Source: a virus (lineage: Duplodnaviria; Caudoviricetes). Taken from it: a stretch of DNA of 59,537 nt. Below, piece after piece: positions 4,437-48,801 of the stretch. The translations under genes and the position numbers were made by a program. The number at the start of each line of letters is the position of its first letter. Position 1 is the stretch's first letter. The stretch lies in the IMG/VR virus record IMGVR_UViG_3300022665_000158, positions 1-59,537 of that record. The stretch is one strand, 5' to 3'. The notes beneath the pieces are model-generated. The model had not been told where the DNA came from, did no database searches, and saw nothing but the letters and a program-made list of their open reading frames with translations.

Positions 4437-6839
4437 GTGCTGGTGATATGGACGAACGCCACCGGCAAAGCCCTCAAGAAATCGGTCAGCGAACCGCTCA
4501 CCGCCCTCGGCGCCAAGTGGGAAGTGATCCCGGTCAGCCACATTCCCAAGGTGGCGCCCGGGGACGTCGTGCTCGCGATGGGGGTGCAAGCGCTTGCACG
4601 TCTGCAATCGTTCAAGATGGTCCCCAAGGGCCGCAGCATCAAGAGCGTCCGCGGGCAGTGCTTCACGGGGCCCAACACCGCGGCCAAGTTTCTGGTGACC
4701 TACGATCCGGGCCTCGTTCACCGCGAGCCCGATAAGGGGCCCATGATCAGCTGGGATGCCCGCCTCGCTCACCGCCTGTACACCACGAAAACGATGGTCC
4801 CCGAGGTCGGCGAGTACGAATGGGTGGATGACCTCAGCGCGCTGATCGCGCAGACGGATCGCCCCGGGCCCATATTCCTCGGCGTCGACGCGGAGACCGA
4901 GAATCTCTTCCCTCACTACCCGGAGCGGCAGATCGTCACCACGCAATGGGCGGTAAAGCCGGGCGAGGCTTACGTGGTCGACCACTTCACGAAGAACGGC
5001 GGCGAGTTGACCCCGTTGCTGCGCGAGCAAATGGAGTACCTGCTACACGAGCCCAAGTTCCGTGTATGGGGCGCAAACCTGAAGTTCGACTTGGGGTGGC
5101 TCCATTACAAATGGGGGCTTACGTGCTCGAATTTCACGTTCGACCTGCTCATAGCCGCGTCGCTGGTAGACGAGAACCGGGTCAACTCGCTGAATGCGCT
5201 GACGAAGGAACTCACCCCCACGCTGGGTGGCTACGATGACGAGTTCGAGCGGACCGCCGATAAGTCCGACATGGCCACGGAGCTGGCGAAAGATCGAGAC
5301 GGGTTCCTGATCTACTCGGGCGGGGATGCAGACGCCACCCTACGCAACGGGCTGAAGCTCCGGAAGATGCTCGCGAGCGACTACGCGCTGACTCGATTCT
5401 TCACGACGATTTCCATGCCGGCCGTGCGGGCCTTCGAGCGCGTCGAACAGCGGGGCGTGCTGGTAGACGTCGCCAAATACAAGGCGCTGGAGATCGAAGC
5501 CAAGGCGGAGCAGAAGCGGCTGACTACAGAGGCCTTCGCGCAGATCCCGCATACGATCAAGGCGAAGCACTACCCCAAGCTGAAGCTCTCGCGCGCGGCC
5601 CTGAAGATCGACTACCTGTTCGGACCGAACGGCCTGGGGCTGACCCCCACGGTCTCCACGGAGAAGACGAAGGACTACCCGCCCGACAAGCAGATTCCCT
5701 CAGTGTCGATCGACGACCATCTGTCCCAATTCGCGGACCACCCCGTGGCGGGTAAGTTCGTGAATTGCCTAAAGGACTTAGGGCAGGTTGAGAAGGTGCT
5801 GTCGACTTACATTGGGACGAAAGACGCGAAGGGCAACTACGTGAAGGGGTTTCTGTCTCACCTGAGGCCCGACAATCGGTTCCACCCGACCTACATGCTG
5901 TATGCCGGCGCTCTCTTCGAAGGCAAGAGCGACGTGGGCGGGACGGTCACCGGGCGCACGAGCGTCAAGAATCCCGCGATGCAGACCCTTCCGAAGCATT
6001 CCGACTGGGGCAAGAAGCTCCGCAAGTGCTACATCTCGCCGGAAGATATGGCGTGCTGGCAACTGGACTTCTCGCAGGGGGAGCTGCGCGTCGCCGCGTG
6101 CCTTGCGGACGAGAAAGACATGATCGCCGCCTACCGGGCCGGGGTCGATATCCACGCGAAGACCGCTGCGCGCATGATCGGCGTGCCGCTGGACGAGTTC
6201 ATGTCGTGGAAGAAGCACGTGGATCCGGAGATGCGAGCCAAGTACGCCAACGGCCGCCAAAAGGCCAAGGCTGTGAACTTCGGGCTCTTGTACAGCATGG
6301 GCGCCAAGGGGCTAGTGTCGTACGCATGGAAAAGTTACAGCGTCGTGTTCACACTGGCCGAGGCTCAGGAAACCCGAGACACGTTTTTCGAGACCTACCC
6401 AAAGCTGGAGGACTGGCACGAGAAGATGCGGATGCTGGCGCACAGGGACAAAGCCGTACGCTCCCCACTCGGGCGGATCCGCCACCTACCCCACATTGAC
6501 AGCACGGACAAGGCGACGGTCGGCCGGGCGGAACGGCAAGCGATCAACTCCCCGGTGCAATCCTGCCTCTCGGACCTGTGCCTGTGGGGATTGGTTGAAG
6601 TCGAGAAACGATTCGAGACGCGGCAAGAGCGCTTCCACACGGTGGGCATGACTCACGACAGTTTGAACGGCTACGGCCACGTGGACACGCTCGAAGCGGA
6701 TCTCGCTGAAGCTGCTAAAGTGGTGGAGGCGCTACCGATTCGCGACACGTTCGAATGGAATCACCAGATCCCGTTTCCGGTCGACGCCGAGATCGGGCCG
6801 ACCATGGGCGAGCTAGAGGAGTTTCCGATAGCCGCGTAG
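4437..6839 (+). CDS. polA: family A DNA polymerase with 3'-5' exonuclease and a degenerate N-terminal UDG-like domain
   Basis: Exo motifs DAETE, NLKFD, YSGGDAD; pol motif A DFSQGELR, B RQKAKAVNFGLLY, C HDS; N-terminal VLAMG..A and TYDP blocks resemble the SPO1-type UDG-like domain. Confidence 0.95.
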   Translation: MLVIWTNATGKALKKSVSEPLTALGAKWEVIPVSHIPKVAPGDVVLAMGVQALARLQSFKMVPKGRSIKSVRGQCFTGPNTAAKFLVTYDPGLVHREPDKGPMISWDARLAHRLYTTKTMVPEVGEYEWVDDLSALIAQTDRPGPIFLGVDAETENLFPHYPERQIVTTQWAVKPGEAYVVDHFTKNGGELTPLLREQMEYLLHEPKFRVWGANLKFDLGWLHYKWGLTCSNFTFDLLIAASLVDENRVNSLNALTKELTPTLGGYDDEFERTADKSDMATELAKDRDGFLIYSGGDADATLRNGLKLRKMLASDYALTRFFTTISMPAVRAFERVEQRGVLVDVAKYKALEIEAKAEQKRLTTEAFAQIPHTIKAKHYPKLKLSRAALKIDYLFGPNGLGLTPTVSTEKTKDYPPDKQIPSVSIDDHLSQFADHPVAGKFVNCLKDLGQVEKVLSTYIGTKDAKGNYVKGFLSHLRPDNRFHPTYMLYAGALFEGKSDVGGTVTGRTSVKNPAMQTLPKHSDWGKKLRKCYISPEDMACWQLDFSQGELRVAACLADEKDMIAAYRAGVDIHAKTAARMIGVPLDEFMSWKKHVDPEMRAKYANGRQKAKAVNFGLLYSMGAKGLVSYAWKSYSVVFTLAEAQETRDTFFETYPKLEDWHEKMRMLAHRDKAVRSPLGRIRHLPHIDSTDKATVGRAERQAINSPVQSCLSDLCLWGLVEVEKRFETRQERFHTVGMTHDSLNGYGHVDTLEADLAEAAKVVEALPIRDTFEWNHQIPFPVDAEIGPTMGELEEFPIAA
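4585..4598. repeat. 14-bp palindrome TGCAAGCGCTTGCA, copy 1
   Basis: Exact match inside polA. Confidence 0.95.
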
Positions 6840-6866
6840 GCTCTCTAGATCTGCTAGGATGCGAAG

Positions 6867-8864
6867 ATGGCCATCAAGAAGAAAACCTCCGGCGTGAAGA
6901 AGACCGAACCCACGACCGTAGAGGAGGCCGAACCCACCCCCGTAGAGAAAGATGATTCCACACCCAAGCGGGGCCGAGTGATCGTCTACCAGGGCGGCCC
7001 TAGTCAGTCGCTCAACGTGTTGAACCAGCACACCCCGCCGTCCCCGATCCCCAGGACAAAGGACAAGGCGGACGTGAATCCGGCCGTCGCCGACGTCCAC
7101 GACGCGTTCATCAATTTCCAGACAGTGCCAGGGAGCCGCGATCAACTGCTCCAGCCGCCGTTCAACTTCGATGTCGTCGCCGACCTCGTGAGCAAGAACT
7201 CGATACTGCCCCCGCTGATCGACGCCATGGTCGTGAACATTGATGGCACCGGGGCGGAGATCATCGTCAATGAGAAGTTGATCGATGAGGACAAGGAAGG
7301 CGACGACAGGGTTGCCGCCGACAAGATTGAGAGGAAAGAGAAGGCCGCCATCCAAGAATACTTCGACGAGCCGTTCCCCGGGCAGTCGTTCCTAACCCAA
7401 CGCCGTCAGATGCGGGCCGAGCAGGAGAGCATCGGCAACGCCTACCTCGAAGTGATGCGGAACGCAAAGCAAGAGGTCGTGTTCTGGAAGCCGATCATAC
7501 CCGCCAAGAACATCCGACTCGTGCGGCTGGACGACGCGGTCGACGTCACGAAAACCGTGAAGCGCAACGGTATCGATCAGGAAGTGGTCGTCTCCGTGCG
7601 GGAGCGCCGGTATGTGCAAGCGCTCGGGAAGAACATCGTTTGGTTTAAGGATTTCGGCGTGAGCCGCGACCTCAACAAGGCGAACGGCGAGTGGGCGCCC
7701 CTTGGCACTCTCAACTTTGAAGACCGCGCGAACGAGATCATTCACTACATCAACAAGGCCGATCCGTTCAGCCCGTACGGCCTGCCCCGCTGGTGGAGCA
7801 ACGCCCCCAGCGTCATCGGCTCGCGGCGCGCGGAAGAATTCAATCTCATGTTTTTCGACTCGGGCGGCATCCCGCCCATGATGGTGATCGTATCCGGAGG
7901 CGCGCTCGCGGTGGAAGCCGAGAAGGCACTGCGGGACCACTTCATGGCGACGGGGCCGACGCGACACGCGGCCATTGTGCTGGAGGCCTATGGCACCGGC
8001 GGCGATATCGACAAGCCCTCGAACGTCAAGATTCAGATTGAACGGTTCGGCAGCGAGCGCCAGAGTGATAGCTTCTTCGAGAACTACATCGAACGATGCG
8101 ACCACCGGGTCCAGCGTTCGTTCCGGATCCCGGCCCAATTCCTGGGCATGAGCGACGACTTCACGTTCGCTACCGCCCTGTCGTCGATGATGGTCGTCGA
8201 GGCTCAGGTCTTCTCGTCCGAGCGGGCCGAGTTCGATGAGGCTATCAATCTGAAGCTCATGCCGGAGCTGCCGAACGGCGAGAAGTACATCTACCGATCC
8301 AAGAAGCTCTCGCTCGCGGACGCTGAGAGACAACTCTCGGGCTTGGGCCTGATCAAGACCCTGCTCCCGCCGAAGATCTTGGTTGAGCGCGTCGGGGAAG
8401 TCGTGGGTTGGCCGGACCTCACGCTGAGCGACGAAGAGCTGGAAGAGATCGGCGTGCAGCGGGAGAGGGAGTTCGAGCTGAAGACCCGACTGAGCTTCTT
8501 GAGGGGTTCGAGCCCCAGCCCCGATGACAAGAAACCGGGAGACAAGAAACCGGACGACAAGAAGAAGCCGCCGGTCGACGCCAAGGGCAAGCCGATCAAG
8601 AAGTACGACTTCCTGCCCGGAGTCATCTCGCTCGCGGCTGATATGGGCGAGGTGTTGCAGATTGGTTTCGCGCGGCCGGAAGAGGCCCGCGCATTCCAAG
8701 CACTCCGGAAGAAAGTCGAGACGCTTGACGCCGACTCTCTGGATCAGTTTCGGACGCTGCTGGTGGCGAACCTGCTACCCGCCTTCGAGCATGACCCGAA
8801 CGGCGCTCACGAGCTGATCACGCAGGTCTTCGAGGTGGACCACGAGCGAACAAGGCTGAGCTAA
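6867..8864 (+). CDS. portal protein (PBSX/XkdE-like)
   Basis: IGNAYLEV.R, NEIIH, PYGLPRW, FFDSGGIP and FR.P..LG portal motifs; followed by a head-morphogenesis gene. Confidence 0.9.
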   Translation: MAIKKKTSGVKKTEPTTVEEAEPTPVEKDDSTPKRGRVIVYQGGPSQSLNVLNQHTPPSPIPRTKDKADVNPAVADVHDAFINFQTVPGSRDQLLQPPFNFDVVADLVSKNSILPPLIDAMVVNIDGTGAEIIVNEKLIDEDKEGDDRVAADKIERKEKAAIQEYFDEPFPGQSFLTQRRQMRAEQESIGNAYLEVMRNAKQEVVFWKPIIPAKNIRLVRLDDAVDVTKTVKRNGIDQEVVVSVRERRYVQALGKNIVWFKDFGVSRDLNKANGEWAPLGTLNFEDRANEIIHYINKADPFSPYGLPRWWSNAPSVIGSRRAEEFNLMFFDSGGIPPMMVIVSGGALAVEAEKALRDHFMATGPTRHAAIVLEAYGTGGDIDKPSNVKIQIERFGSERQSDSFFENYIERCDHRVQRSFRIPAQFLGMSDDFTFATALSSMMVVEAQVFSSERAEFDEAINLKLMPELPNGEKYIYRSKKLSLADAERQLSGLGLIKTLLPPKILVERVGEVVGWPDLTLSDEELEEIGVQREREFELKTRLSFLRGSSPSPDDKKPGDKKPDDKKKPPVDAKGKPIKKYDFLPGVISLAADMGEVLQIGFARPEEARAFQALRKKVETLDADSLDQFRTLLVANLLPAFEHDPNGAHELITQVFEVDHERTRLS

Positions 8865-11170: not shown

Positions 11171-11182
11171 CCCGGAGGTATC

Positions 11183-11368: not shown

Positions 11369-11581
11369 GTGTCCGGTTTCCAACACATAATCGAACCCGA
11401 GCCGGATCCCGAGCCCGAGACCTACACGGCCGGGCCGCGTGGCAAGGCGACGATCATCCGCGGGCCGGGCAAGTGCAAGCGCTTGCACGCCGACTGGGTG
11501 TGGATTTTCCTAGGGGCACTGGCGGCAAGTGGGCTGGCTCTGGGCGGCGCCTCGCTGTTCCTACTGGCGACGTCGCGATGA
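11369..11581 (+). CDS. small membrane protein
   Basis: C-terminal hydrophobic helix; carries palindrome copy 2. Confidence 0.5.
   Translation: MSGFQHIIEPEPDPEPETYTAGPRGKATIIRGPGKCKRLHADWVWIFLGALAASGLALGGASLFLLATSR
11474..11487. repeat. 14-bp palindrome, copy 2
   Basis: Exact match. Confidence 0.95.
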
Positions 11582-13370: not shown

Positions 13371-16233
13371 AATCAGCTATCGCGCGCGCGTGAGGGAATT
13401 GTCCGGGCAGGTTCACGAGCTGAAGCGGGATAACGAACACGCGGAGCGCACGATCGCGATGTTCGAAAGCGACCTCAAAACGACAGAGAACGCCGCCGTG
13501 GCCATGGAACGAGACCGCGACGAACTACTAGAGACCGTCAATCGGCACGGCTTGACGCCGCTCGGGGAATTGGAAGAGCAGATCCGACTGCTGAAGTTGC
13601 GGCTCGAAGCCAAGGAAGAGGACTTCGAACATCTCGACGTGTTGGCCGACGGCTACAAGGCGCAGCGCGACACGGCGCGGGCCGAGCTACTCGGCGAAGA
13701 GCTGTCCGATACCCAGATACTCGATCTGACGAACGAAGAGGCCGGGCCGGGCGCGCTGCCGGGTACCAAGCCGGTGACGCTCACGCAACCGGGCGAGGAG
13801 ATCGTCCCCTTCCACAGGGAGAAGAGCGGGAAGCTGGTGGCCGGCCACGGCCCTGGCCTGATCGGCGACCACCGCCGGGTCACCGAAGAGCGGGACGACG
13901 CGCGGCGCGCTCGGGACTTGACGCAATGCGAATGCAATCGCCTCACGGAGCAGCTGACCTACTGGGAGAACGTGGCGCCCAATACCCACCCCGAGCTGAT
14001 CGTCTCCACCCTCATGGAGGAGCGCGACGCGTTGCAGAGTGAGCTGGACAAGGCGGAGAACAGAGCCGAAACGATCAGGCTGGAGGGATTGCGAATCCGC
14101 CGATTCGCGGAGTTGGGGCTGGCCGATGCGCGGAACTCGAATAAAAGCCTGAGGGCGGTGATCACGGACTTACACGAAGTGAAGCAAGAGCGGGACGGCA
14201 ACGCGGAGTCGGTTCGGTTCAACGTCGAACGCGTGACCGACTTAGCCGAAGAACTGTCCGAAGTGAAGGCCCAGCGGAACGACAAGGACGTCGTCATCGA
14301 TGCCATGACCGCAAACGCGGAGACGTTGAAAGAGGACGCGGATAGGGCATGGGCTGCTCTGGAGCTATCCGAGGAGAAGCTGGTGGCCACGGAGACCGCC
14401 CTGGAGCTGGCCATCAAGAAGCTGGCGACCCTCGACACCCCAGAGCCGGACCCGGATCCCGATGACGACCCCGAGGATGACCCGACCTCGCCCACGGGCG
14501 GCGCCGGGGGCGGCGACGGATCCACTGGTGGCTCACCTCTGCGAGATGCCATCGCGGAACGCTCTGAGGCGATCGCGGCCGAACAAGTCGCGGCAGCGGG
14601 AAGCCCCCTGAAGATCAAGACCCTTGCGGGACCGGGGCCACGAATCGAAAGCGACGAGGCGGCACCGGAAGCCCCCGAGAAACCCACAACGCCGGGGGCA
14701 CGGCTGCCCGTGGACGCCCCGCCGCTCGACAAGTTCGGGGATGGATTCGTTTGCCGGCTCGGCTACGACTACGGCGAGGAGATATTCTTCGACAGATCGC
14801 GGCCCGTAGAGGGAGAACTGCACGCTGACGGCGGCCCTCTGTACGAAGAATGCGAACCCACAGACGTCGTGGCCGACCTCGAACACCTACTCGGGGAAAC
14901 GCAAATAGGATTGAACGCGGCATCCGCGGAGAACACGGACCTGCACGTGGAGATCACGGATCAGCAAGGGACGATCGCGGACCTGAGGGAGACCATCGAC
15001 ACCTACGAAGTGATGGAGGAAGAGCGAGCCGCGAGCCTATACGCTCAAGTCGCGGACGCCGAGAACGACCGTGAGCGCTTGCACGAGAGTCTGGTGATCC
15101 AGAAAGCCCTGACTGAGGACCGACTCGCCGAACAGCGGCTACTACAGCGAGAGCTGCGGGCAGCGGAGAGGAAGTGCGACGCGTACCAGCTTGAGGTGAT
15201 CACGAGCGACGGTATACTGAACACCGCGGTAACCGAGTTGTCCGAAGAGCGTAGTAAAACCGCGCACTTACGGTCACGCTTGCATCAAGCCATCAAGCAC
15301 ATCGACGATATCACCGCGGCGATCTGCGACGATACCCCCACCCCCCCGAGACCGGGAGGTCTGATCGATGCGGACGATGACGATGAGGAAGAATCAGAGG
15401 CGGAAGCGAGAGCGATGCTCGCGCACTACCGGACACAATTCGTCCGGCTGGCGGAGACGAAGCTCGCATTGGAGAAGCAAGTCGACGAACTACAGGCGAA
15501 ACTCGCTCCCGAAAGTTCGCGCATCGAGTTGGACGAACAGGCCTCCAGGGACGACTTTCAGGGTATACCGCGCGGGCCGACCGATGAGAGCCTAGGCACC
15601 GTGATCGCGGATGCTGTGCTGGACAACGTTGTCGAGGTCTCACGGGAATCGATCGAGACCGGCACGCGGGACGCCACTTTCGCGGAGCAGGTGACCGGCG
15701 ACGCTGAGGAAGAGGCCGGGCCGACGAAGCTGCACGACAGGCACAAGGTGGTAGCGACGGCAATGGATATCCTGAAGCGCGCGAAGTCGCGAGAGCCGCG
15801 AAAGCGTGAATCGGCCGGGATGGAGAATGCCGCGGCGAAGCTGGGGATCACGCCCGAGAAGGTGGTCGAGGTGGGCGTGTCGCTTCTGGAGGCCGCGCCG
15901 GCGCAAGAGCGCATCGTAACGGTTGACGATATCGCGGAGGCCATCGGCGCCAAGATCGTAATGCCGGAGACGAAGATGACGATCACCGGGTCGGTCGCGG
16001 AGATGGACGCAAATGCAAGCGCTTGCACTCGGGTATGGATTGCCCCGGCGGGCGCCTGCCCGGCTCTGGTGAGCGATTCCCACGGCTTCGCGGAACGGGC
16101 TCCAGCGCCCGGATTCTTCCCCGCCCCTTACTGCCCCGCGTGCAACCAAGATTTCGTGGCAGGAGAGCGCCCTGTGGACCCAGACAGGGCATATGTGACG
16201 GTCGAAGAGTCGCGGAGGATGACGGGATCATGA
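13363..16233 (+). CDS. large acidic coiled-coil protein (956 aa)
   Basis: Long heptad-rich segments separated by P/D/G linkers; C-terminal CPAC. Confidence 0.75.
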   Translation: MTEISYRARVRELSGQVHELKRDNEHAERTIAMFESDLKTTENAAVAMERDRDELLETVNRHGLTPLGELEEQIRLLKLRLEAKEEDFEHLDVLADGYKAQRDTARAELLGEELSDTQILDLTNEEAGPGALPGTKPVTLTQPGEEIVPFHREKSGKLVAGHGPGLIGDHRRVTEERDDARRARDLTQCECNRLTEQLTYWENVAPNTHPELIVSTLMEERDALQSELDKAENRAETIRLEGLRIRRFAELGLADARNSNKSLRAVITDLHEVKQERDGNAESVRFNVERVTDLAEELSEVKAQRNDKDVVIDAMTANAETLKEDADRAWAALELSEEKLVATETALELAIKKLATLDTPEPDPDPDDDPEDDPTSPTGGAGGGDGSTGGSPLRDAIAERSEAIAAEQVAAAGSPLKIKTLAGPGPRIESDEAAPEAPEKPTTPGARLPVDAPPLDKFGDGFVCRLGYDYGEEIFFDRSRPVEGELHADGGPLYEECEPTDVVADLEHLLGETQIGLNAASAENTDLHVEITDQQGTIADLRETIDTYEVMEEERAASLYAQVADAENDRERLHESLVIQKALTEDRLAEQRLLQRELRAAERKCDAYQLEVITSDGILNTAVTELSEERSKTAHLRSRLHQAIKHIDDITAAICDDTPTPPRPGGLIDADDDDEEESEAEARAMLAHYRTQFVRLAETKLALEKQVDELQAKLAPESSRIELDEQASRDDFQGIPRGPTDESLGTVIADAVLDNVVEVSRESIETGTRDATFAEQVTGDAEEEAGPTKLHDRHKVVATAMDILKRAKSREPRKRESAGMENAAAKLGITPEKVVEVGVSLLEAAPAQERIVTVDDIAEAIGAKIVMPETKMTITGSVAEMDANASACTRVWIAPAGACPALVSDSHGFAERAPAPGFFPAPYCPACNQDFVAGERPVDPDRAYVTVEESRRMTGS
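16014..16027. repeat. 14-bp palindrome, copy 3
   Basis: Exact match, preceded by GCAAA. Confidence 0.95.
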
Positions 16234-20858: not shown

Positions 20859-20872
20859 TGCAAGCGCTTGCA
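20859..20872. repeat. 14-bp palindrome, copy 4 (extends to AATGCAAGCGCTTGCATT)
   Basis: Exact match, intergenic after tRNA-Asn. Confidence 0.95.
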
Positions 20873-21849: not shown

Positions 21850-23055
21850 ATGGATTCCCTCCACATCGAAGAGCGCCCGGTCGGCTCTCTTACGCCGTAT
21901 TCGAGGAATGCGAGAACCCACTCCGAGAAACAGATCCAACAGATCGCGGCCTCAATCAAGACGTTCGGCTTCACGAACCCCATTCTCATCGATGCGGCTG
22001 GGATAATCATCGCTGGCCACGGGCGGCTGCGCGCTGCCCAGCAGCTAGGGATGGAGACGGTCCCGACGATCTGCCTCAAGCACCTATCCGAGCAGCAAGC
22101 CCGTGCCCTCGTGATCGCCGATAACAAGCTCGCCGAACTCGCAGGGTGGGATGAGGATATGCTCGCGCTTGAGCTACAGAGTCTCACAGAGATGGCGCTG
22201 GAGATGGATCTTGATTTCGATTTGAGTGTCATTGGCTTTGACGAGGGCGAGCTTGAACGGCTGCTTCAGCAGGAGCATGAAGGCGCGATCGATGACGATG
22301 ACGTACCCAGCGATATCGAGAAGCGCTGCAAGGTGGGCGATCTGTGGAAGCTCGGTGATCACCGCCTGCTGTGCGGGGATGCGACGAAGGCCGAGGATGT
22401 GGCCCGCTTGCTCAACGGCGAGAAGGTCGATCTTGTGTTCACCGATCCGCCCTACGGCATGGGACTGACGCCGGTCAAGAATTACGCCTCGAAGAAGGAA
22501 CGCAAAAAGCGCGAGGAGTACGAGCCGGTTCTCGGCGATGACAAACCATTCGACGCTAGCGTACTCGTGTCGATGATCGATTGCGATCGCTGGTACATAT
22601 GGGGCGCAGACTACTTCCTTTCCTCGATTCCGAACTACACGGACGGCAGCCTAATCGTGTGGGCGAAGCGCATGAGCGAGGAAGAGAGCGACAAGGTATT
22701 CGGCAGCGCATTCGAGATCTGCTGGACGCTACCGAGAACGAAGAAGGTGATCTGGTTCGAACGGGCAATCAACCAGTCGTCGGAACGGCTCGGGCTGCAT
22801 CCGACCCAGAAGCCGACCGCCCTCGCCATTCGTGCATTCGAGAGGAGTTCCAAGCGCGGCGCACTTGTCGTAGACCTATACGCGGGAAGCGGAACGACGA
22901 TCATCGCGGCCGAGAAATATGATCGCCGCTGCTTCGCAATGGAAATCTCCCCCGAATACTGCGATGTGATCCTGCAACGTTGGGAGCGGTTCACCGAGCG
23001 CAAGGCGGAGATCGTGACGGAGCACCTAGACACAGAGGAGAAGGCCGATGGCTAA
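21850..23055 (+). CDS. ParB/Srx-like N-terminal domain fused to an N6A/N4C DNA methyltransferase
   Basis: PY.RNAR.H, FGFTNPI, AGHGRL, IADNKL; MTase motifs FTDPPY, HPTQKP, DLYAGSGTT. Confidence 0.9.
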   Translation: MDSLHIEERPVGSLTPYSRNARTHSEKQIQQIAASIKTFGFTNPILIDAAGIIIAGHGRLRAAQQLGMETVPTICLKHLSEQQARALVIADNKLAELAGWDEDMLALELQSLTEMALEMDLDFDLSVIGFDEGELERLLQQEHEGAIDDDDVPSDIEKRCKVGDLWKLGDHRLLCGDATKAEDVARLLNGEKVDLVFTDPPYGMGLTPVKNYASKKERKKREEYEPVLGDDKPFDASVLVSMIDCDRWYIWGADYFLSSIPNYTDGSLIVWAKRMSEEESDKVFGSAFEICWTLPRTKKVIWFERAINQSSERLGLHPTQKPTALAIRAFERSSKRGALVVDLYAGSGTTIIAAEKYDRRCFAMEISPEYCDVILQRWERFTERKAEIVTEHLDTEEKADG

Positions 23056-23794: not shown

Positions 23795-23988
23795 AAGAGG
23801 AACTTCCGAAACCGCCCGTGAAGACGGAAGTGGCTGACGGCCTGATCTCAGCTATGCTCGACAGAGTCAAGATGCAAGCGCTTGCACCCGCGACCCCCAA
23901 GCGGAAGCGTAAGCGGGACAGCAAGCACGCGGCGAAGCACATCGTTCGGAAGAGGGTAAAGGCAGCCCGCCAACGAAACCGCCGCTAG
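23791..23988 (+). CDS. small basic protein
   Basis: AAGGA SD, ATGA coupling; K/R-rich tail; carries palindrome copy 5. Confidence 0.5.
   Translation: MKEELPKPPVKTEVADGLISAMLDRVKMQALAPATPKRKRKRDSKHAAKHIVRKRVKAARQRNRR
23873..23886. repeat. 14-bp palindrome, copy 5
   Basis: Exact match. Confidence 0.95.
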
Positions 23989-27349: not shown

Positions 27350-27600
27350 CCTTGCGAAATGCAAGCGCTTGCATTTTGATCCTACTTTTCGTCGGCTGCG
27401 CGGGGCTCATCCCCCAAAAGACCGTCCATGAGCGGACCTGCGCGACCGTAGAGACCATGTGGGATGCGGACGCGCAAGACATTGTGATTATTGAGCATGG
27501 CTGTACTATGGAGCAGCTGGAGGAACACGGATTCGGGTGGAAGGAAATCGCCGGCTCGATTGGCGGCGTGCTTCTGCTACTGCTGCCACTACTACTCTAG
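27346..27600 (+). CDS. putative lipoprotein with hydrophobic C-terminus
   Basis: Signal peptide with FVGC lipobox; poly-Leu tail; carries palindrome copy 6. Confidence 0.5.
   Translation: MTLRNASACILILLFVGCAGLIPQKTVHERTCATVETMWDADAQDIVIIEHGCTMEQLEEHGFGWKEIAGSIGGVLLLLLPLLL
27360..27373. repeat. 14-bp palindrome, copy 6 (extends to AAATGCAAGCGCTTGCATTT)
   Basis: Exact match; 20-bp extended palindrome. Confidence 0.95.
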
Positions 27601-31231: not shown

Positions 31232-31235
31232 CGCC

Positions 31236-33240: not shown

Positions 33241-34692
33241 AACGCCTTCCCGGCAACTGGGCCGTGCGCAAGGGTGGCCTCTGCAAGCCGCGCTGGTGGC
33301 AGGTCATCGAAAATGGTACCGTACTGGACGCACGCCCCTCGGCTGCAAGCGCGTGCCGGCGGGCTCACGCGATCATCGAAGAGCGGCGCAAGCGGCGCAT
33401 TTGGGCGCTCGCGGGGGTGTACCGATGATATGGAACGATCGGACGATCTCTGTGCGGCGCTTTCTGGAGGATTGCATGATCCGCAAACGGCTACGACTCC
33501 CGCCCCTGCCCCCGGCGCCTACGCCCCAGGAGCACCATGATAACGTCGAATTCATGGCCGAGGCCTTGCGGGTGGGGTTCCCGCGTGGGCGCCCGGCGAT
33601 ACTGATTGCCGCGTCGAAGAAGAAGACCGTGTTCGACTGCATCGGCCCCGATGGCCGGATCAGCGACGCGGGGTGGGAATTGCTCGACTTGGACAACCCG
33701 CACACGCGGTACCATTGATGCGGATCCGCTGGCCGTTCACGCGAAACACCCACTGGGAAGACATGAGCGACCTCGAGTGGCTGGATACCGTGATTCGAAA
33801 CGTCCGCCGCGTGAGGTGTGGCGAGACCCCGAACGAGGATGAGGGAAAGCTGATTTGCGACTTGGCCCTGCACGGGCACTTTACTGTGGGTATGACGGTG
33901 AACACCCTGCAAGAGCTAGTCGCGCGCGGGCGGACGTACGAAAGCGAGAAGCTCGTGTGGAAGGGCCGAAAACGAAAATGGAGGTTCCGATGGCGAAGGT
34001 GAAACTGAGAGCGACGCTCACGGTGACGGTGGACTACGAGGTGGCCGACGACTATGACGGCTGCGAGAACCTCTCTTCGCTGATACGCCACGAGGAGACC
34101 GCGATCCGGAACGACCCCACGGACTTCGTGGACGTCCCCAAGGCGAAAATCGAGATCAAGGTTGAGAAGCGCGGGGGCTAATGTTCCTGCGGCGTTCGCC
34201 GATAGGCTGGGTATGAGAGACAAGCACGGAAACGACTGGACCCCGCCGGGTGACCCGCTCGAGTCAGAGCGATGCGAGACCCCTGGGTGCCCGACGCGGC
34301 GTATGGCAGCGCGATGATGATCATGCTGCTGAAGCTGCGCGCGTCGCTCGAGCGAAAGCTGACGACGTACAACGTGCCGTCTGCGGATCTCGAGGAGACC
34401 ATCTACGGGTACGCGGACGTCGAGGCGATGATCCTGCAAGCGGGCGGTGACCCGCACGGCCTCACGCACTGAGGAGAGCGCTATGATGCCCAGCTACACA
34501 GTATCCTATTCGTGGAGCGCTCACCGCCAAAAGCATGACCGCTTCACAGATCGTTTCACGATTAACCCCGGCAGCCAAGTTTCTATCTGGCTGTTCGGTT
34601 GGGTCATTTGCTACACGGGCAAGAGCAGCAAGTACCCACCTGAGACGAAGCCCAAGTTTCAACCTTGGCGCGACGCACTGAGGAGAGGTTGA
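33237..34692 (+). other. run of about 7 small hypothetical CDSs (33237-33428, 33425-33718, 33718-34002, 33990-34181, 34272-34472, 34483-34692)
   Basis: Tightly coupled ORFs; no recognised families. Confidence 0.5.
34179..34205 (+). promoter_or_regulatory. sigma28/FliA-like promoter candidate
   Basis: TAATGTTC-N11-GCCGATAG in an intergenic gap, 7 nt before ATG 34213. Confidence 0.5.
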
Positions 34693-35280: not shown

Positions 35281-35281
35281 C

Positions 35282-37018: not shown

Positions 37019-37061
37019 GACGCGGCAGTGCTCGCCGACGTCTCACCCCGCCCTTCGCACG
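36944..37061 (+). ncRNA. candidate multi-stem structured RNA
   Basis: 14-bp closing stem 36944-36957/37047-37061 enclosing three hairpins. Confidence 0.4.
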
Positions 37062-37122
37062 GCGTTGTAAGGTATCAAAAGAGTCACTTTAATAGCCCTT
37101 ATGGGCCATAAGGAACAGTATC

Positions 37123-37386: not shown

Positions 37387-37739
37387 CCGAATTCCCCACG
37401 AAGAAAGGAATGACTCTACGGCGTTTCGCGCACAAGATGCATTTCGTCTGCACGTGCTGCGACGGCTCGAAGTATTCCAAGTTCCGAGCCGATACGCCCG
37501 ACGGCGTGATCTGCAATCGCTGCTACGGGCGGAAGTTACAGGGCGCCCCGCCGGTGAAGGAAGCAGAGGCCCCTCTCGTATTGAGCGGGACGGTAACCGG
37601 GCGCACTGCGAGCGGGAAGTTGCCTGTGCTACAGATCAAGTTCAATCGCACGCCCCCGCAAATGGGCCTGCGCGGATGCAAGCGCTTGCATTTGACTTCG
37701 GGCAAATGCGGAAAGGAGTTCGGATGCGAATCAGGCTAG
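37383..37739 (+). CDS. hypothetical Zn-finger protein
   Basis: CTCC...ICNRCYG; palindrome copy 7 near the 3' end. Confidence 0.5.
   Translation: MTEFPTKKGMTLRRFAHKMHFVCTCCDGSKYSKFRADTPDGVICNRCYGRKLQGAPPVKEAEAPLVLSGTVTGRTASGKLPVLQIKFNRTPPQMGLRGCKRLHLTSGKCGKEFGCESG
37677..37690. repeat. 14-bp palindrome, copy 7
   Basis: Exact match, 33 nt upstream of ATG 37724. Confidence 0.95.
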
Positions 37740-39636: not shown

Positions 39637-40075
39637 CCGCCTGTGTAAGCGCTTGCAGGTCATACCCAATGGCTGTTGGGAGTGGCAGGGGTACTGCATT
39701 TCCGACGGTTACGGGCAGATTACTGTGGACGGGGCGCCGAAGCGTGTCCATCGTGTGATGTTTGAGGAGATGGTCGGACCGATTCCCGAAGGGATGTGCG
39801 TACTACACTCTTGCGACAACCCACCATGCGCAAACCCCGCCCATCTGTGGTTAGGGACGCACGCCGATAACATGGCGGATCGGGACGCGAAAGGCCGACA
39901 AGGGGCTGCGAGGGGCGAGAAAAATGGAAGATCCAAATTGACCTGGGAGCAGGTTGAGGCAATTCGAATGGATACCCGTTTACAATATGTAATCGCCTCT
40001 GACTACGGGGTGAGCTACCAGTTAATTTCGAAGATTAAAGCCAAGAAGTATTGGAAGGAGCCAAAATGCGAATAG
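39620..40075 (+). CDS. HNH homing endonuclease
   Basis: CWEWQG..GYG, VHR, VLHSCDNPPCANPAHL; one-mismatch palindrome at 39644-39657. Confidence 0.9.
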   Translation: MTQLYDRLCKRLQVIPNGCWEWQGYCISDGYGQITVDGAPKRVHRVMFEEMVGPIPEGMCVLHSCDNPPCANPAHLWLGTHADNMADRDAKGRQGAARGEKNGRSKLTWEQVEAIRMDTRLQYVIASDYGVSYQLISKIKAKKYWKEPKCE

Positions 40076-40434: not shown

Positions 40435-40888
40435 GATCCGAACGCGAAGAGGGTCGGCGCGACGGCCTGCATGAGGCCGCGATGCTCATGGACGAGATGT
40501 GGGAGGAGCAGGTCAAGAATCGGCCGCGGGATAACTACCTCTACGCCGGCCTGCACTCCGCGTTCCGGGGCGCTGCGCTGAGGCTGCGCCAGCTGGCTGA
40601 CCCCCAGGAAACGGGACCGAAGCTATGACCGACCAGCAGCGTTCCGAGCGGGCGCGGCTGTGCGAGGAGCGGGTCAAGCGGCGCTGGCGCCAAGAGCAGG
40701 CGACGCGCAAGTGCAAGCGCGTGCGCGACTGCACGAAGCCGCCGCGTGTGCTGCTCACGCCGGAAGCGCGGGCGGCTATCTCGCGATCCAATCTGAAAAT
40801 CGCTAACCTGTCGCGGCAATCGACGCGCGGGACGCCGGAGGCGATCAGCACGGTGTGGTGGTCGAATCGGGAGAGACGCGGTGAATGA
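40431..40888 (+). other. two small hypothetical CDSs (40431-40628 and 40625-40888)
   Basis: ATGA-coupled ORFs. Confidence 0.45.
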
Positions 40889-42664: not shown

Positions 42665-43094
42665 GAAACGCGGGCCTAAGCCGATCCCCTTGATTGAGCG
42701 CTTGTGCAAGCGCTTGCATGTAGCCCCCGGTGGTTGTTTGGAATTCCAAGGCTACCGGGACAAGGGCGGGTATGGGAGAATTGGTGAGGGGGGCTACAAC
42801 TGCAAGAAAATCCTCACCCATCGGGTGGTATGGGAGGATGCGTTCGGTCCGATCCCCGCCGGCTTTTGTGTCCTCCATCGGTGTGATAACCCGCCTTGCT
42901 GTAACCCGTGGCACTTGTTCCTGGGGACGCGTGGGGACAATGCGGCCGACCGGGACGCCAAGGGGCGGACGCACAAGAAACTAACCCGGGAGCAAGTCCA
43001 AGCGATACGGGCAGATGGCCGGGTGCAGCGCATTGTCGCCCTTGATTTTGGAATCCATCAAGCTACGGTATCGCGAATTCGGAGGATTGCATGA
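42645..43094 (+). CDS. HNH homing endonuclease
   Basis: CLEFQG..GYG, THR, VLHRCDNPPCCNPWHL; carries palindrome copy 8. Confidence 0.9.
   Translation: MADIVPEKRGPKPIPLIERLCKRLHVAPGGCLEFQGYRDKGGYGRIGEGGYNCKKILTHRVVWEDAFGPIPAGFCVLHRCDNPPCCNPWHLFLGTRGDNAADRDAKGRTHKKLTREQVQAIRADGRVQRIVALDFGIHQATVSRIRRIA
42705..42718. repeat. 14-bp palindrome, copy 8
   Basis: Exact match. Confidence 0.95.
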
Positions 43095-43276
43095 GTTGCC
43101 CCGACTGCGAGATCGACTGGGCGGCGGTAGCGCGGCTGGCCTACGGGTCGATTCCCAAGGATGGGCCCTTGATGACCGGGAAGCAGATTCAGCGGTTAGC
43201 TCTCCGGACCATTGAGGACGCACTGAAAATACCCACGCTACTCGGAGACCGAAATGGGACGCCACGCGGTAGCTGA
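43091..43276 (+). CDS. small hypothetical protein
   Basis: GGAGG SD, ATGA coupling. Confidence 0.45.
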   Translation: MSCPDCEIDWAAVARLAYGSIPKDGPLMTGKQIQRLALRTIEDALKIPTLLGDRNGTPRGS

Positions 43277-43882: not shown

Positions 43883-43896
43883 TGCAAGCGCTTGCA
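43883..43896. repeat. 14-bp palindrome, copy 9
   Basis: Exact match, intergenic ahead of the head-gene block. Confidence 0.95.
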
Positions 43897-43930
43897 CGAG
43901 CGGCTATGCTCCCACCCAGGGGGCGAGCTG

Positions 43931-45327: not shown

Positions 45328-46562
45328 TGCAGATCAAGAAAGAGCTGGCGGAAATGCATGATGGCAGGGTACAATTGATCTCATTGGTCGAGACTGGTGC
45401 CAATGCAGCGCCGTTCAAGAAGTTGAAATCAGAAAATCCTGAGGGGGATACCGACGTGTTCAGAGCCGAAAAACTCACCGCAGCCAAAGCCGATGGGCCG
45501 ACACTGATCGCGCTCGCTGTATCGCCCAAGGGCGACGTAAAGGCAGCCGAGGCAATTGCCAAGGCAGCCGGAATCGAAATTCAGGACACTCGCGAAGTGG
45601 AGGGCGACGACGGTACGACCACACTCCTGCTCGCGCGCAAGCAAGACCGCGTCAACACCGCCGACCCGCAGCAAGTGCAGGTCCAGCTCGACGATGAGCT
45701 GATCGCGGTATGCCGGGTCGAGAAGATGTTCATGCCGTTCAACGGCGAGACGTCATTCAGCGAGGCGATCAAGGCGCAGGGATTCTTCCCGCAGCTGCAC
45801 AACGCGCTGGACGTGTTCCACGAGGTGGCCTTTCAAATTCTGGACTCCGTCGACTCTCCCGCGGAAGCGGCCACGAAAATCAAGGAATCGGGCGACGAGC
45901 TGGTTTCGTTGCTGACCCTGATGACGAAGGCGCTTCCCAAGGAAACCTTCAAGATGGCCGAGGTGCTCAAGACCCTGAAGGCTGAGGGGACCGAGTCGCT
46001 GATCGGCAAGAAAGACGACAATGGCGACGAGGCCGCAGTCAAGGAAAAGGCTGATGCTGATGCCAAGGAAAAGGCCGACGCGGATGCCAAGGCCGAAGGC
46101 GACGAGAAGGTCACGGCCGAGAAGGAAGGCGACCACAAGTCGGACGCCAAGGCTGACGACAAGGTCGAGACCGAGAAGGCCGTCCATGTGGACGACGATG
46201 AGGAAGAGGACGAGAAGGGCAAGAAGAACAAGAAGGGCAAGAAAAAGGAAGATGCCCCGTCTGACCTCGACAAGGTTCTCGAAGCAATCGCGGGGCTCAC
46301 CGCTACCGTCGTCAAGCAAGGCGAAGTGACGGACGACTTGAAAGAGCAGATCGCCACCGTGGCCGCCAAGGCGGACGAAGCGGAAGCGACTGCGAAGGCA
46401 GCTGACGACAAGGCGGATGCGACGGATCAGGCTGTGACTGGCCGGGTGTCCACGACGCCGGCCGGAGACGGACGCGGTCGAAGTGAACGCAAATCCAAGG
46501 GCGCTCCTCCGCTCATGGATACGGGCATGTCCCGCTACCGCGCAAGAGGTGGCGCGAACTAG
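45327..46562 (+). CDS. scaffold-like head protein
   Basis: ISLV..GAN..F start, long K/D/E/A-rich region; between protease and capsid genes. Confidence 0.65.
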   Translation: MQIKKELAEMHDGRVQLISLVETGANAAPFKKLKSENPEGDTDVFRAEKLTAAKADGPTLIALAVSPKGDVKAAEAIAKAAGIEIQDTREVEGDDGTTTLLLARKQDRVNTADPQQVQVQLDDELIAVCRVEKMFMPFNGETSFSEAIKAQGFFPQLHNALDVFHEVAFQILDSVDSPAEAATKIKESGDELVSLLTLMTKALPKETFKMAEVLKTLKAEGTESLIGKKDDNGDEAAVKEKADADAKEKADADAKAEGDEKVTAEKEGDHKSDAKADDKVETEKAVHVDDDEEEDEKGKKNKKGKKKEDAPSDLDKVLEAIAGLTATVVKQGEVTDDLKEQIATVAAKADEAEATAKAADDKADATDQAVTGRVSTTPAGDGRGRSERKSKGAPPLMDTGMSRYRARGGAN

Positions 46563-46634
46563 GGGAGCGGGGCTACGCTTTGCAATGACGTCGGGCAACC
46601 GACACGAACAGTTTCCTGAGGGGGGAATGGAACG

Positions 46635-47642
46635 ATGGCTTCAAACAGACAACTCGTCGAAAAGGCTGACTTCGCAAATGCCGATCTGGTAACAGCGGGT
46701 CTAGTCAATCCGGAGCAAGCGAACCGCTTCTTCCGTCGACTGATCAACGAGCCCACGATGCTCCGCGACATTCGCTCGGTAGAGATGGATTCGCCCACGC
46801 GAAACATCAATCGCCTCCAGTTCAACAAGAGAATCCTCCGTGCCGGTACCAGCGCAGTCGCGCTCGACACCGCCGCGGCTGCTTCTTCGGCCCCGTTCGA
46901 TCCGATCGCGGAAAACACGAGCCGAGGCAAGCCCGAGACCTCGCAGGTCGTTCTCAACACCACGGAAGTCATTGCGGAAGTCGACCTTCCCTATGACGTG
47001 ATCGAAGACAACGTGGAGCTGGGGAACATCGGCGAGATGCGCGACGTTGGCGGCGCCCCTGCGGGCGGCGGCTTCATCGACACCGTCTTGGAGTTGATGG
47101 CAGAGCGCGCGGCGCTCGACCTCGAAGAGCTGCTTCTGCTCGGCGACGTCGACCTGGGTGCGGCCGATACCTACCTCGACCTTCAGGACGGCGTTCTGGA
47201 GATCGTTCGGGACGGCGGAAACATCAACGACGAGGTCGGGGCACTCGTGTCCAAGACCACATTCAAGAATGGCAAGAAAACCATGCCGGATCAGTACCTC
47301 AGGAACATCAATTCCATGAGGCACTACATCTCGCACGATCAGGAGACGGAGTACAGGGACACGGTCGCAGACCGCGCCACTGGCTACGGTGACGCGACCT
47401 TGCAGGGCGATGCCCCGCTGCGCGCGTTCGGTTCCGCGGTCGTAGCGAATGCCACGATCCCCGACGATGAGGGGCTCTTCACGAACCCCCAGAACATCAT
47501 CTGGGGCTTGCAGCGGAAGATGCTGCTGGAGTGGGATAAGCTGATTCGCGAGCGGGTGCTGCTGATCGTTCTCTCGGCGCGAGTCGCCGTGCAGGTTGAG
47601 GACGCGGCGGGCGCGGTAATCCACACAAACCTGGGCGTCTAG
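46635..47642 (+). CDS. major capsid protein (HK97 fold, XkdG/P2-like)
   Basis: G.VNPEQA.RF, IEDNVE, A.DLEEL...GD, DG, TNP.NI..G; 335 aa followed by a terminator. Confidence 0.9.
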   Translation: MASNRQLVEKADFANADLVTAGLVNPEQANRFFRRLINEPTMLRDIRSVEMDSPTRNINRLQFNKRILRAGTSAVALDTAAAASSAPFDPIAENTSRGKPETSQVVLNTTEVIAEVDLPYDVIEDNVELGNIGEMRDVGGAPAGGGFIDTVLELMAERAALDLEELLLLGDVDLGAADTYLDLQDGVLEIVRDGGNINDEVGALVSKTTFKNGKKTMPDQYLRNINSMRHYISHDQETEYRDTVADRATGYGDATLQGDAPLRAFGSAVVANATIPDDEGLFTNPQNIIWGLQRKMLLEWDKLIRERVLLIVLSARVAVQVEDAAGAVIHTNLGV

Positions 47643-48053: not shown

Positions 48054-48779
48054 ATGCCGTTGATCCGGAGCGTGGAGAGTACGCGTGAGCGTCTCGGGTT
48101 CGGTGTCGATGCTGACCGCGATGCGGCTTTCGAGTCTCATCTTGAAACTGCCGTCGAGACGATTTCCGATCGAATACGTAGCGAACTGACACGCGTGGAC
48201 GTGATAGACACGTTTTTCGTGAGGTTCACGCTACGATCGCCGATCGGCACGGGGGGCCGGAAGCGGCCTGCGACGTCCAGAAACACGGGCATCGCGGTTG
48301 CGGGCTCCTCTACGACCACGCTCCTGCTCAGCCGGGGTTTCGTGTCCGATATTGGTTCCGGAATGACGATTTTCGCCGCCGGGACGGAGGACGCGCTGGA
48401 CGACTCGGCGGTACGCTCCGACCTGAAGTCCGTATCCTCCATCGACCACACCCTGATTGAGGCCGAGCGCGGCGTCGTGCGGGTGCAGGACTTCGGGCTG
48501 GACGGCGTCTACGTGCGGGTCAGCTACCGGGCGGGCTTCTTGGACGACGGCGCTACGCCTGCCGTATTCCAGAGCACGCCGGATTGGCTGGTACGGGCGA
48601 ACGACTTGGAGACCCGTATCCTCGTGAATTCGGATGCGGTGTTCGGGCGCGACAAAGTCGAGAAGGATGAGCAAGACCGGCTGGAGATGCGGTTGAACAG
48701 CATCCTCTACAAGCACGCCCGTTACATCCCCACCGCGGAGAAGCCGATCCACAGCGTGGAAACCGCCTCATCCATATAA
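48054..48779 (+). CDS. head-tail connector/adaptor
   Basis: V.V.Y.AGF...PDWL motif of gp6-like adaptors; synteny. Confidence 0.7.
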   Translation: MPLIRSVESTRERLGFGVDADRDAAFESHLETAVETISDRIRSELTRVDVIDTFFVRFTLRSPIGTGGRKRPATSRNTGIAVAGSSTTTLLLSRGFVSDIGSGMTIFAAGTEDALDDSAVRSDLKSVSSIDHTLIEAERGVVRVQDFGLDGVYVRVSYRAGFLDDGATPAVFQSTPDWLVRANDLETRILVNSDAVFGRDKVEKDEQDRLEMRLNSILYKHARYIPTAEKPIHSVETASSI

Positions 48780-48787
48780 GGGGGTCG

Positions 48788-48801
48788 TGCAAGCGCTTGC
48801 A
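48788..48801. repeat. 14-bp palindrome, copy 10
   Basis: Exact match, intergenic, 9 nt before ATG 48811. Confidence 0.95.

Follow-up and report, generated by a model that had tools for sequence, protein, structure and literature searches.

Why does a single 14-bp palindrome, TGCAAGCGCTTGCA, recur unchanged ten times along a viral contig, and what reads it? The contig is IMG/VR record IMGVR_UViG_3300022665_000158 (Duplodnaviria; Caudoviricetes), a linear sequence rated 63% complete by CheckV and analysed here over its full 59,537 nt (hereafter, the window). The sites are real, are selected as DNA, occur clade-wide at even spacing, and co-vary symmetrically between lineages. The array may represent a set of putative docking sites for a phage-encoded, sequence-specific, symmetric-dimer protein acting genome-wide, a reading to which we assign somewhat less than an even chance; from the behaviour of the sites we infer reading by a protein dimer, the phage origin and identity of that protein, and the effect of its binding.

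Copies of the palindrome in the window

An initial annotation of the window had listed ten exact copies and a one-mismatch copy at 39644; all of them were found (Table 1), together with two two-mismatch copies at 33344 and 40712. The last ~10 kb is free of copies, as had been noted, with a 13-mer carrying one arm mismatch at 59300 being the only near-match beyond 48801. With up to two mismatches there are 13 matches, whereas 100 dinucleotide shuffles gave 0.23 ± 0.45 and never as many as 13. When synonymous codons were permuted with the proteins and the codon usage kept, exact copies inside open reading frames (ORFs) averaged 0.053 (maximum of 1 over 300 shuffles) against eight observed with maximal ORFs. 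Because both kinds of shuffle fall far below the observed counts, neither composition nor the encoded peptides explain the sites, which bears out the earlier proposals that the copies far exceed chance and that selection acts on the DNA and not on the peptide. Inside genes, the palindrome is read in all three frames (QALA, CKRL, and ASAC; Table 1), again as first described.

Two paralogous HNH genes, whose proteins are 55–60% identical, carry the copies at 42705 and 39644 at homologous codons (peptide RLCKRL), and two further HNH paralogs (86 and 56186) keep the peptide, or nearly so, with the site absent. These two copies may share descent rather than represent independent gains; the CKRL frame noted earlier for the HNH genes stands. 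Three copies had also been called intergenic. This status is firm for 20859 and nearly so for 43883, but the third, 48788, lies at the 5′ end of an ORF with an ambiguous start, as do 27360 and 37677; site 27360 falls in the gap after gene 27146–27349 if the ATG at 27346 is unused. Depending on the ORF calls, one (maximal ORFs) or four (trimmed ORFs) of the ten sites are fully intergenic. The flanks described as one-sided AAA or TTT extensions are present in the form of a purine at position −1 and a pyrimidine at position +1.

Occurrence in related phages

Megablast of window positions 1–25000 against cultured phages gave no matches. By capsid and TerL protein (41–50% identity), the nearest phages are Stenotrophomonas phages DLP5, DLP3, and Summit, Rhizobium phages RHph_TM16 and Y1_11, Rhodobacter phage RcZahn, and the ~80-kb Vibrio SIO-2 group; more distant kin include Agrobacterium phage JP1, RcTiptonus, Rhizobium phage L338C, and SM1-like Pseudomonas phages. 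The group consists of siphophages of ~80–120 kb with genes on one strand and 30–50% protein identity to the window. A search of relatives, which the initial annotation had proposed as a check, showed that related phages carry the same or a co-varying palindrome, both among IMG/VR contigs and among cultured phages. The constant part, with the centre relaxed, is TGCAA-N4-TTGCA, and relatives (DLP5/DLP3, RcZahn, RHph_TM16, JP1, and SM1-like phages) contain 9–57 copies of TGCAA-N3/4-TTGCA or a symmetric variant.

The exact 14-mer occurs in IMG/VR at 130 or more loci, several contigs being matched repeatedly. In ten IMG/VR contigs, 26, 7, 3, 4, 31, 16, 4, 3, 4, and 24 copies with up to one mismatch were counted, and a reversed-pattern control gave 0 in all of them. 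The IMG/VR genomes that were followed up have 44–60% GC and core proteins 21–39% identical to those of the window; six of the contigs (G002–G004 and G007–G009) showed no nucleotide-level alignment with it. Overall, the motif-bearing genomes span 37–66% GC and share nearly no nucleotide similarity. Among cultured phages, DLP5 has 31 copies, RHph_TM16 has 17, and RcZahn has 9, and the GCAA-N4-TTGC core is present 35 times in DLP3, 34 in UF_RH6, 35 in JP1, 30 in RcTiptonus, and 52 in L338C (control, 1–4). The Vibrio phage SIO-2 carries six GCAAT-NN-ATTGC sites. Two or more copies were found in 32 of 51 TerL-related IMG/VR loci of at least 12 kb, with a total of 139 sites in 982 kb versus 3 in a Markov control. 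In a search for any inverted repeat, the element or a sub-form of it ranked first in eight of nine genomes. No enrichment or avoidance of the half-site TGCA(A) was seen outside the palindromes. An IMG/VR locus of 37% GC (L226) has, beside six TGCAA-N4-TTGCA sites, a second, unrelated palindrome, ATTATAC-NN-GTATAAT, in six copies.

Variation and conservation of the site

Within one genome the sites are nearly uniform, and lineages differ mostly in the centre, which is GCGC in the window and in relative G001, A/G-CG-C/T in the SM1-like G005, TCAA/TTGA in DLP5, CATA in RHph_TM16, and ACGT in JP1. The arms also change, and do so symmetrically, as in TGCAGA-NN-TCTGCA (28 copies in G012), GCACT-NN-AGTGC (six copies in L192), and CGCAA-N4-TTGCG (L245 and L247); in relatives they often extend to GTGCAA..TTGCAC or TTGCAAG..CTTGCAA. 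Mixed half-sites are common and are a major form in RcZahn (TGCAA..CTGCA, 11 + 4), RcTiptonus (TACAA..TTGCA, 12 + 3), and G010 (TGAAA..TTGCA, 7 + 2). Asymmetric centres occur in both orientations, with ACGC and GCGT numbering 11 and 10 in G005, and TCAA and TTGA numbering 20 and 9 in DLP5.

Conservation was assessed by comparing DLP5 with DLP3, whose genomes are 82% identical. Twenty-nine of the 31 DLP5 sites align, and their arm bases are identical at 290 of 290 positions; all five altered sites differ in the central 4 nt only, one of them by inversion of CA to TG. The 100-nt flanks, by comparison, are identical at 83%, so that the full identity of the arms directly demonstrates purifying selection on the site DNA. 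Other pairs were uninformative, being either too similar (G005 and UF_RH6, 98.6% identical throughout) or nearly devoid of alignable sites (1 of 20 for RcZahn/RHph_TM16 and 2 of 31 for DLP5/G011). The same alignment bears on the possibility that the array arose by chance, through faulty assembly, or as a small mobile repeat resembling a miniature inverted-repeat transposable element (MITE) or a repetitive extragenic palindrome (REP). Nothing was found in favour of this possibility, which is virtually negligible in view of the shuffles, the presence of the same element in independently sequenced cultured phages, the end of similarity at the 14–16-bp core, and the orthologous positions kept between DLP5 and DLP3. 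The REP/MITE-like repeat was rejected in particular on its unrelated flanks and on the 29 of 31 DLP5 sites that are in place in DLP3.

The site variant follows phage kinship, not host: DLP5 and RcZahn, which infect a gammaproteobacterial and an alphaproteobacterial host, respectively, share TGCAATCAATTGCA, and JP1 (Agrobacterium) and RHph_TM16 (Rhizobium), both on Rhizobiaceae, have different variants. These data bear directly on the suggestion in the initial annotation of a LacI/CcpA (cre)-type operator and of titration of a host sugar regulator. In this explanation, the array would be an operator mimic, with a host LacI/PurR-family regulator either titrated by the phage or regulating it. The 14-mer of the window does fit the generic TG-AA-CG-TT-CA shape of LacI/PurR/CcpA operators, and the JP1 core, GCAAACGTTTGC, resembles the E. 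coli PurR box. A central CG is a hallmark of LacI-family operators. It is present in all ten sites of the window but is not conserved in relatives, where the centre is CA/TG (DLP5), AT/AA (RHph_TM16), or TA, TG, CG, or a single base (G006). Moreover, the variant goes with the lineage of the phage, an even array of thirty intragenic sites is unlike the operator layout of a regulon, and the LacI helix-turn-helix (HTH) family PF00356 was matched at E ≤ 1 in none of five motif-bearing phage genomes (the control was matched in 14 of 14 genomes) and, in Pfam, by none of 100 window ORFs. We therefore regard the operator mimic as very unlikely, and the earlier suggestion is not upheld.

Placement and spacing of the sites

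The sites are more evenly spaced than expected for random placement, the coefficient of variation of the gaps being 0.48–0.73 versus ~0.9 (P ≤ 0.025 in seven of eight genomes; not significant in RcZahn) and 0.49 in the window (P = 0.0245). In the relatives, they are over-represented between genes: 9 of 26 sites in G001 and 9 of 31 in DLP5 are intergenic, where ~8–10% of the DNA is non-coding by crude ORF calls, and reading the DLP5 annotation likewise places 9 of 31 sites between annotated plus-strand coding sequences. In relatives of lower GC content (G001, G005, and DLP5), a site often fills the entire gap between a stop codon and the following Shine–Dalgarno sequence. In GC-rich genomes, most sites are deep in genes, and the next start is up to 2 kb away. 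Another arrangement is seen in G006, in which a 600-nt AT-rich non-coding region (26200–26770; 6200–6770 of locus L144) contains, besides short direct repeats, a tandem array of four 73-bp units; every unit has one site and a second, 18-bp palindrome AAAAGTGTACACACTTTT. In this array, each site occupies the 17-nt interval before a −10-like hexamer. The region looks like an origin or an early control region, and some sites, such as those of the array, may double as classical operators.

The sites might, as another explanation, be promoter-linked operators of an immunity or timing repressor, each controlling a nearby promoter. The dispersed C1 operators of phage P1 provide a model for such a system. 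The intergenic excess in DLP5 and G001 and the four G006 sites that fill the 17-nt gap would suit it, as would a sigma-70-like sequence of DLP5 (TTGTTC-17-TATAGT) that ends 2 nt before site 3264 and the phagemid state in which DLP5 is reported to persist. On the other hand, the sites of GC-rich members lie mostly deep in genes, the layout of stop codon, site, and Shine–Dalgarno sequence leaves no room for a promoter, and the sites are spaced too regularly. Conservation of the flanks ends at ±1–2 nt, and a search of the window at 36–50 kb found no sigma-70 promoter-like match at the sites, the counts being equal to those of shuffles. Control of individual promoters is thus an improbable function for the array as a whole.

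A structural hairpin was considered as another explanation, either as an RNA stem-loop (for processing, stability, translation, or nut-like antitermination) or as a single-stranded DNA signal for priming or nicking. Lagging-strand priming intervals cover the range of 2–5 kb, in which the spacing of the sites also lies. A hairpin would further accord with the many sites between stop codon and Shine–Dalgarno sequence in the lower-GC relatives, and the toleration of 3- or 4-nt 'loops' in G006 is one feature in its favour. The predicted RNA folds of the window sites range from −8.5 to −12.1 kcal/mol; two of six beat shuffles (z = −2.4 and −2.5), but four are no better. Covariation was not seen in the flanks of individual sites, complementary pairs numbering 211, 101, 117, and 104 of 401 versus 202.6, 112.9, 107.8, and 97.3 expected, and the sense strand shows no preference for G–U-compatible variants (23 versus 46, the strand of some GC-rich genomes being uncertain). 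The dominant hybrid sites would give A–C mismatches, each genome has one arm sequence without compensatory diversity, and asymmetric centres appear in both orientations. Rfam 15 at the gathering score returned tRNA only and no family at the sites. With regard to termination, no intrinsic terminator-like match was found at any site within the window at 36–50 kb, and true terminator-like hairpins of the relatives stand before or after sites in no fixed order. Altogether, a hairpin function appears improbable, to about the same degree as promoter-linked operators.

A proposed dimeric reader

We return to the docking of a phage-encoded dimer, which the initial annotation had put forward as a genome-wide array bound by a dimeric protein and which is the best-supported reading; the two-half-site behaviour of the element fits a dimeric DNA-binding protein. 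Each subunit would read one TGCAA(G) arm on duplex DNA across a short flexible centre that tolerates change, often to pyrimidine–purine steps. Selection would keep a site approximately every 2–5 kb genome-wide, in tiny intergenic gaps where possible and otherwise in codons. Because the sites are regular across the entire genome and stand within codons where needed, the task may be a genome-wide one, such as coating or organising, segregating, or silencing the DNA, or marking it as self, rather than the control of particular promoters. The reported phagemid state of DLP5 would suggest a use for both silencing and segregation. The reader of the window sites is probably encoded in the part missing from the 63%-complete contig.

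Candidate readers

The initial annotation had named three local candidates for the binder, none of which finds support here: TerS, the ParB-methyltransferase, and an ORF at 39370 (88 aa) described as an XRE-type HTH protein; the latter has no Pfam or PHROG match. In 11 of 16 genomes, ParB_N, which in the window is fused to a methyltransferase (Table 1), immediately precedes TerL, and it is the only non-core family common to the first eight motif-bearing genomes. It was nevertheless rejected as a universal reader, since it is absent from G011, G012, and G013 (CheckV, 100% complete; 20, 28, and 26 sites), as examined with a local hidden Markov model on six-frame ORFs and a genome search. In addition, across 80 loci the motif and a ParB_N gene near TerL do not go together, and the C-terminal domains of the protein vary between lineages. 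In a family survey ParB_N was not found in G006 or SIO-2, although another search saw a weaker match in G006; SIO-2, with its six sites, is not a true motif-negative genome. Fusions of the ParB fold and a methyltransferase are described as a common phage architecture of unknown role (PMC12704722).

The same genes raise the possibility of a covalent DNA event at the sites, i.e. T5-like nicks, cuts by an HNH or ParB-like nuclease, or site-directed base modification. The window encodes the ParB_N-methyltransferase and five HNH genes, ParB_N is frequent upstream of TerL, and even spacing would suit nicks. DNA of the clade is modified, to judge from DLP3, whose DNA was uncut by all 15 restriction enzymes tried (PMC7326821). 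However, ParB_N is missing from the three complete genomes with 20–28 sites, the HNH homing genes are sporadic, and the TGCA(A) half-site is neither depleted nor enriched elsewhere. Methyltransferases rarely read 14 bp, which also counts against this explanation. We consider such an event quite unlikely.

All 14 near-complete genomes share the families of the structural core and of a replication/recombination module comprising DnaB, primase, a Zn-motif protein, an SF2 helicase, RecA, a resolvase, an exonuclease, two AAA ATPases, PolA, and phrog_17202. This module of the relatives is missing from the window, the simplest explanation being the incompleteness of the contig. The Zn-motif protein next to primase (phrog_17226, with a Zn-Cys motif) is, by its motif, a probable gp32-like single-stranded DNA-binding protein and was set aside as a reader. 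The best candidate for the reader is phrog_17202 (gp67 of DLP5), a member of the conserved module that is present in 14 of 14 near-complete genomes; that it reads the site is possible but rather doubtful, and it is named as a candidate only.

Profile searches of phrog_17202 against Pfam, NCBIfam, and PDB sequences gave only a hint of DUF3102 (E = 0.08), and no ParB-CTPase domain was found in it. Its AlphaFold model has a helical core with a predicted local distance difference test score (pLDDT) of ~90 over residues 30–160 (mean, 67.7). In VIA-align, the model superposed on the DNA-binding domains of ParB with parS (6s6h_B; Z-score, 7.9; root-mean-square deviation, 4.2; 115 aligned), KorB with operator (1r71_A; Z-score, 7.0; root-mean-square deviation, 3.7; 106 of 114 aligned), and Spo0J (1vz0_A; Z-score, 7.0; root-mean-square deviation, 3.5; 102 aligned), and further on KorB 8qa8 (6.3), SopB (5.0), VirB (4.5), and P1 ParB (4.4); seven ParB-superfamily DNA-binding domains are among the first 28 rows. 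These models weakly suggest a ParB/KorB-like fold. A homodimer was predicted with a score of 0.74, as opposed to 0.00 for the best control, with runs agreeing in at least 88% of contacts and a partner pLDDT of at least 75; among proteins of solved structure, 20 of 30 pairs and 1 of 23 single chains attained this mark, counts that are rough because the alignment had four rows. In seven of 14 genomes, a site is located 64–112 nt upstream of the first Met of phrog_17202, against 1.69 expected (P ~ 5 × 10^-4). The SM1-like homolog (G005; 4202–5548 of locus L137) has long acidic and KGKA/AKPA-repeat tails rich in lysine, alanine, and proline, which resemble histone-H1-like tails of bacterial DNA-binding proteins.

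Several observations weigh against the proposed dimeric reader or against phrog_17202 in that role. One orientation of the hybrid sites outnumbers the other by 3:1 to 4:1 (RcZahn, RcTiptonus, G010, and G011), which a purely symmetric function does not predict, and the arms in G006 are one base apart in 33 sites and two in 23, which is unusual for a rigid dimer. The intergenic preference vanishes in the window with maximal ORFs (1 of 10; P = 0.48). The phrog_17202 gene is not in the window, so that naming it as the reader for this contig is an extrapolation. Its fold matches are below the Z-score that is safe for helical models (~13), which can attain values of this size by chance, Raf1 chains match as well or better (Z-score up to 9.3), and Foldseek gave no match at E ≤ 0.001, with ParB, Spo0J, and KorB DNA-binding domains listed repeatedly. 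The P value for the upstream site is uncorrected for 12 families and for related pairs (DLP5/DLP3 and G005/UF_RH6), and the next best family, the portal gene, has an upstream site in 6 of 16 cases. No simple code linking a recognition helix to the arms was found in the phrog_17202 alignment.

In its boldest version, the proposal would make phrog_17202 a hitherto unrecognised, CTPase-less, ParB/KorB-like HTH dimer that coats or organises the whole viral chromosome from loading sites placed every 2–5 kb and co-evolves with its site, an idea that we think rather unlikely. Its role in that version would be global silencing together with plasmid-prophage segregation, or shielding or compartmentalising of replicating DNA.

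Comparison with known dispersed sites

The likeness drawn in the initial annotation to dispersed sites of other replicons, of the KorB, Noc, and stoperator type, is apt. On plasmid RK2 (IncP), OB sites are numerous and dispersed over a replicon of ~60 kb. According to one report, KorB loads at these palindromes and slides to silence distant promoters, the sites being read by a dimeric ParB-family HTH protein that acts at a distance (PMC11790492). OB and the present sites are both short dispersed palindromes, some of them far from promoters, and the 6-1-6 geometry of OB is that of the G006 13-mers. The systems differ in that phrog_17202 has no ParB-CTPase domain, ParB_N is missing in three complete relatives, and the site density is 2–5 times higher here. 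No KorA- or ParA-like partner was identified: the Pfam results for the window and for 75 DLP5 ORFs showed no evident ParA/IncC-type protein, no dedicated search having been made. Noc sites, parS, and SlmA sites are 14–16-bp palindromes scattered on a replicon, where they load a spreading or membrane-tethering protein. They differ from the present array in being host chromosomal and of other sequence, and no gene of the Noc or SlmA type came to light in the phage.

The remaining parallels come from mycobacteriophages (Cresawn et al. 2015, PMC4351075). Stoperators of Cluster A phages also number dozens of short sites in and between genes and are presumed targets of a single phage protein acting on the whole genome, but they are asymmetric and oriented with transcription, whereas the present sites are palindromic and their centres occur in both orientations. 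Closer in kind is the 17-bp dyad TGTTCGG-NNN-CCGAACA of Cluster O phages, which has 34 copies and no known binder or function. Both elements keep their inverted arms invariant around a centre that varies and are repeated over 30 times genome-wide; about a third to a half of the copies are intergenic and the rest are in genes, mostly not at promoters; the orientation of the centre is unlinked to transcription, and a dimeric binder is presumed. Cluster O phages likewise encode a ParB-like protein, a beta clamp, and an AAA ATPase. The differences are in arm and spacer lengths (7-3-7 versus 5/6-4/2-5/6 here), sequence, actinobacterial hosts, and unrelated lineage, and the Cluster O repeats become denser toward one genome end, in contrast to the evenly spaced sites described here. 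Unlike the dyad of Cluster O, the present sites have been traced over many genera, two proteobacterial classes, and 37–66% GC, with co-varying arms. The likeness is one of kind, not homology.

A description of the palindrome was not found in the literature consulted, including the accessible text of the DLP3 and Rhodobacter capsulatus phage papers, subscription journals and supplements being outside this scope; the feature is apparently undescribed. If the proposed reading is true, these phages devote ~30 strictly conserved sites, many of them in codons, to a single undescribed genome-wide DNA–protein interaction, and would offer a testable case of viral whole-genome organisation or silencing and, in their co-varying site/protein pairs, a natural series for study. 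Such a result may also shed light on the Cluster O repeats, a puzzle now a decade old. Several phages of the group are studied for therapy against Pseudomonas aeruginosa and Stenotrophomonas maltophilia, and the motif is a sharp signature by which members of the clade can be recognised in metagenomes.

Gene content of the window

The plus strand holds every convincing gene of the window, and the sites and main genes are collected in Table 1. The scattered HNH genes are probably homing endonucleases, one of them being located between the tape measure and distal tail genes.

Table 1. Palindromic sites and principal genes of the window (positions in nt; empty cells, not given)
Feature	Position	Strand	Remarks
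Exact site TGCAAGCGCTTGCA	4585..4598	.	Inside polA ORF; frame QALA
Exact site	11474..11487	.	Overlapping ORFs 11131-11838 / 11369-11581, coding status uncertain; frame CKRL
Exact site	16014..16027	.	Near 3′ end of 956-aa ORF 13363-16233; frame ASAC
Exact site	20859..20872	.	Intergenic, 14 nt past tRNA-Asn; AA..TT flanks extend the palindrome
Exact site	23873..23886	.	Small ORF 23791-23988, between ParB-methyltransferase and TerL blocks; frame QALA
Exact site	27360..27373	.	14 nt past ATG 27346; 20-bp palindrome including flanks
Two-mismatch copy TGCAAGCGCGTGCC	33344..33357	.	In the largest gap between exact sites (27360-37677)
Exact site	37677..37690	.	34 nt upstream of Shine–Dalgarno-like AAAGGAG and ATG 37724, within a longer GTG-started ORF
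One-mismatch copy TGTAAGCGCTTGCA	39644..39657	.	Codons LCKRL of HNH gene 39620-40075
Two-mismatch copy TGCAAGCGCGTGCG	40712..40725	.	
Exact site	42705..42718	.	Codons LCKRL of paralogous HNH gene 42615-43094
Exact site	43883..43896	.	12 nt past ClpP-like gene, ahead of HNH/protease/capsid block
Exact site	48788..48801	.	Between gene 48054-48779 and next gene (start GTG 48787 or ATG 48811)
PolA, portal, MuF-like gene			Pfam/PHROG matches
tRNA-Asn	20770-20845		Single tRNA gene found
ParB_N (ParB-CTPase fold) fused to N6_N4 adenine methyltransferase	21850..23055	+	Tested as site reader
TerL	24589-26535		
DnaN clamp, RNA ligase, Fic-domain protein			
HNH_3 paralogs (four)	86-541, 39620-40075, 42615-43094, 56186-56629		55-60% identical to one another
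ClpP-like gene	43254-43871		XkdF-type protease also encoded
Fifth HNH gene (phrog_5046)	43892-44434		
Capsid gene, tape measure, distal tail genes like those of gene transfer agents			

The head genes are split in the window: a distance of ~35 kb, occupied by TerL and many DNA-metabolism genes, separates the portal and MuF-like genes (6867–9808) from those for protease, scaffold-like protein, and capsid (44380–47642), whereas portal, protease, and capsid genes are adjacent in DLP5. A similar interruption is noted in the RcZahn paper.

Upstream of polA, a block of four genes (520–1101, 1026–2270, 2278–2922, and 2891–3655) is conserved and common to DLP5, RcZahn, RHph_TM16, and SIO-2; two paralogs in it match a 'thymidylate synthase' PHROG, and a DSP-phosphatase-like Pfam match is also present. 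In view of the reported resistance of DLP3 DNA to 15 restriction enzymes, the block may belong to a DNA-modification pathway. The 956-aa ORF at 13363–16233 belongs to no Pfam or PHROG family, its sole match being a faint SMC-like coiled coil (E = 0.0044). Finally, two small proteins (34665–35063, E = 2.6e-21; 40051–40434, E = 1.2e-32) consist of the RapZ C-terminal domain alone, an unusual cargo for a phage.

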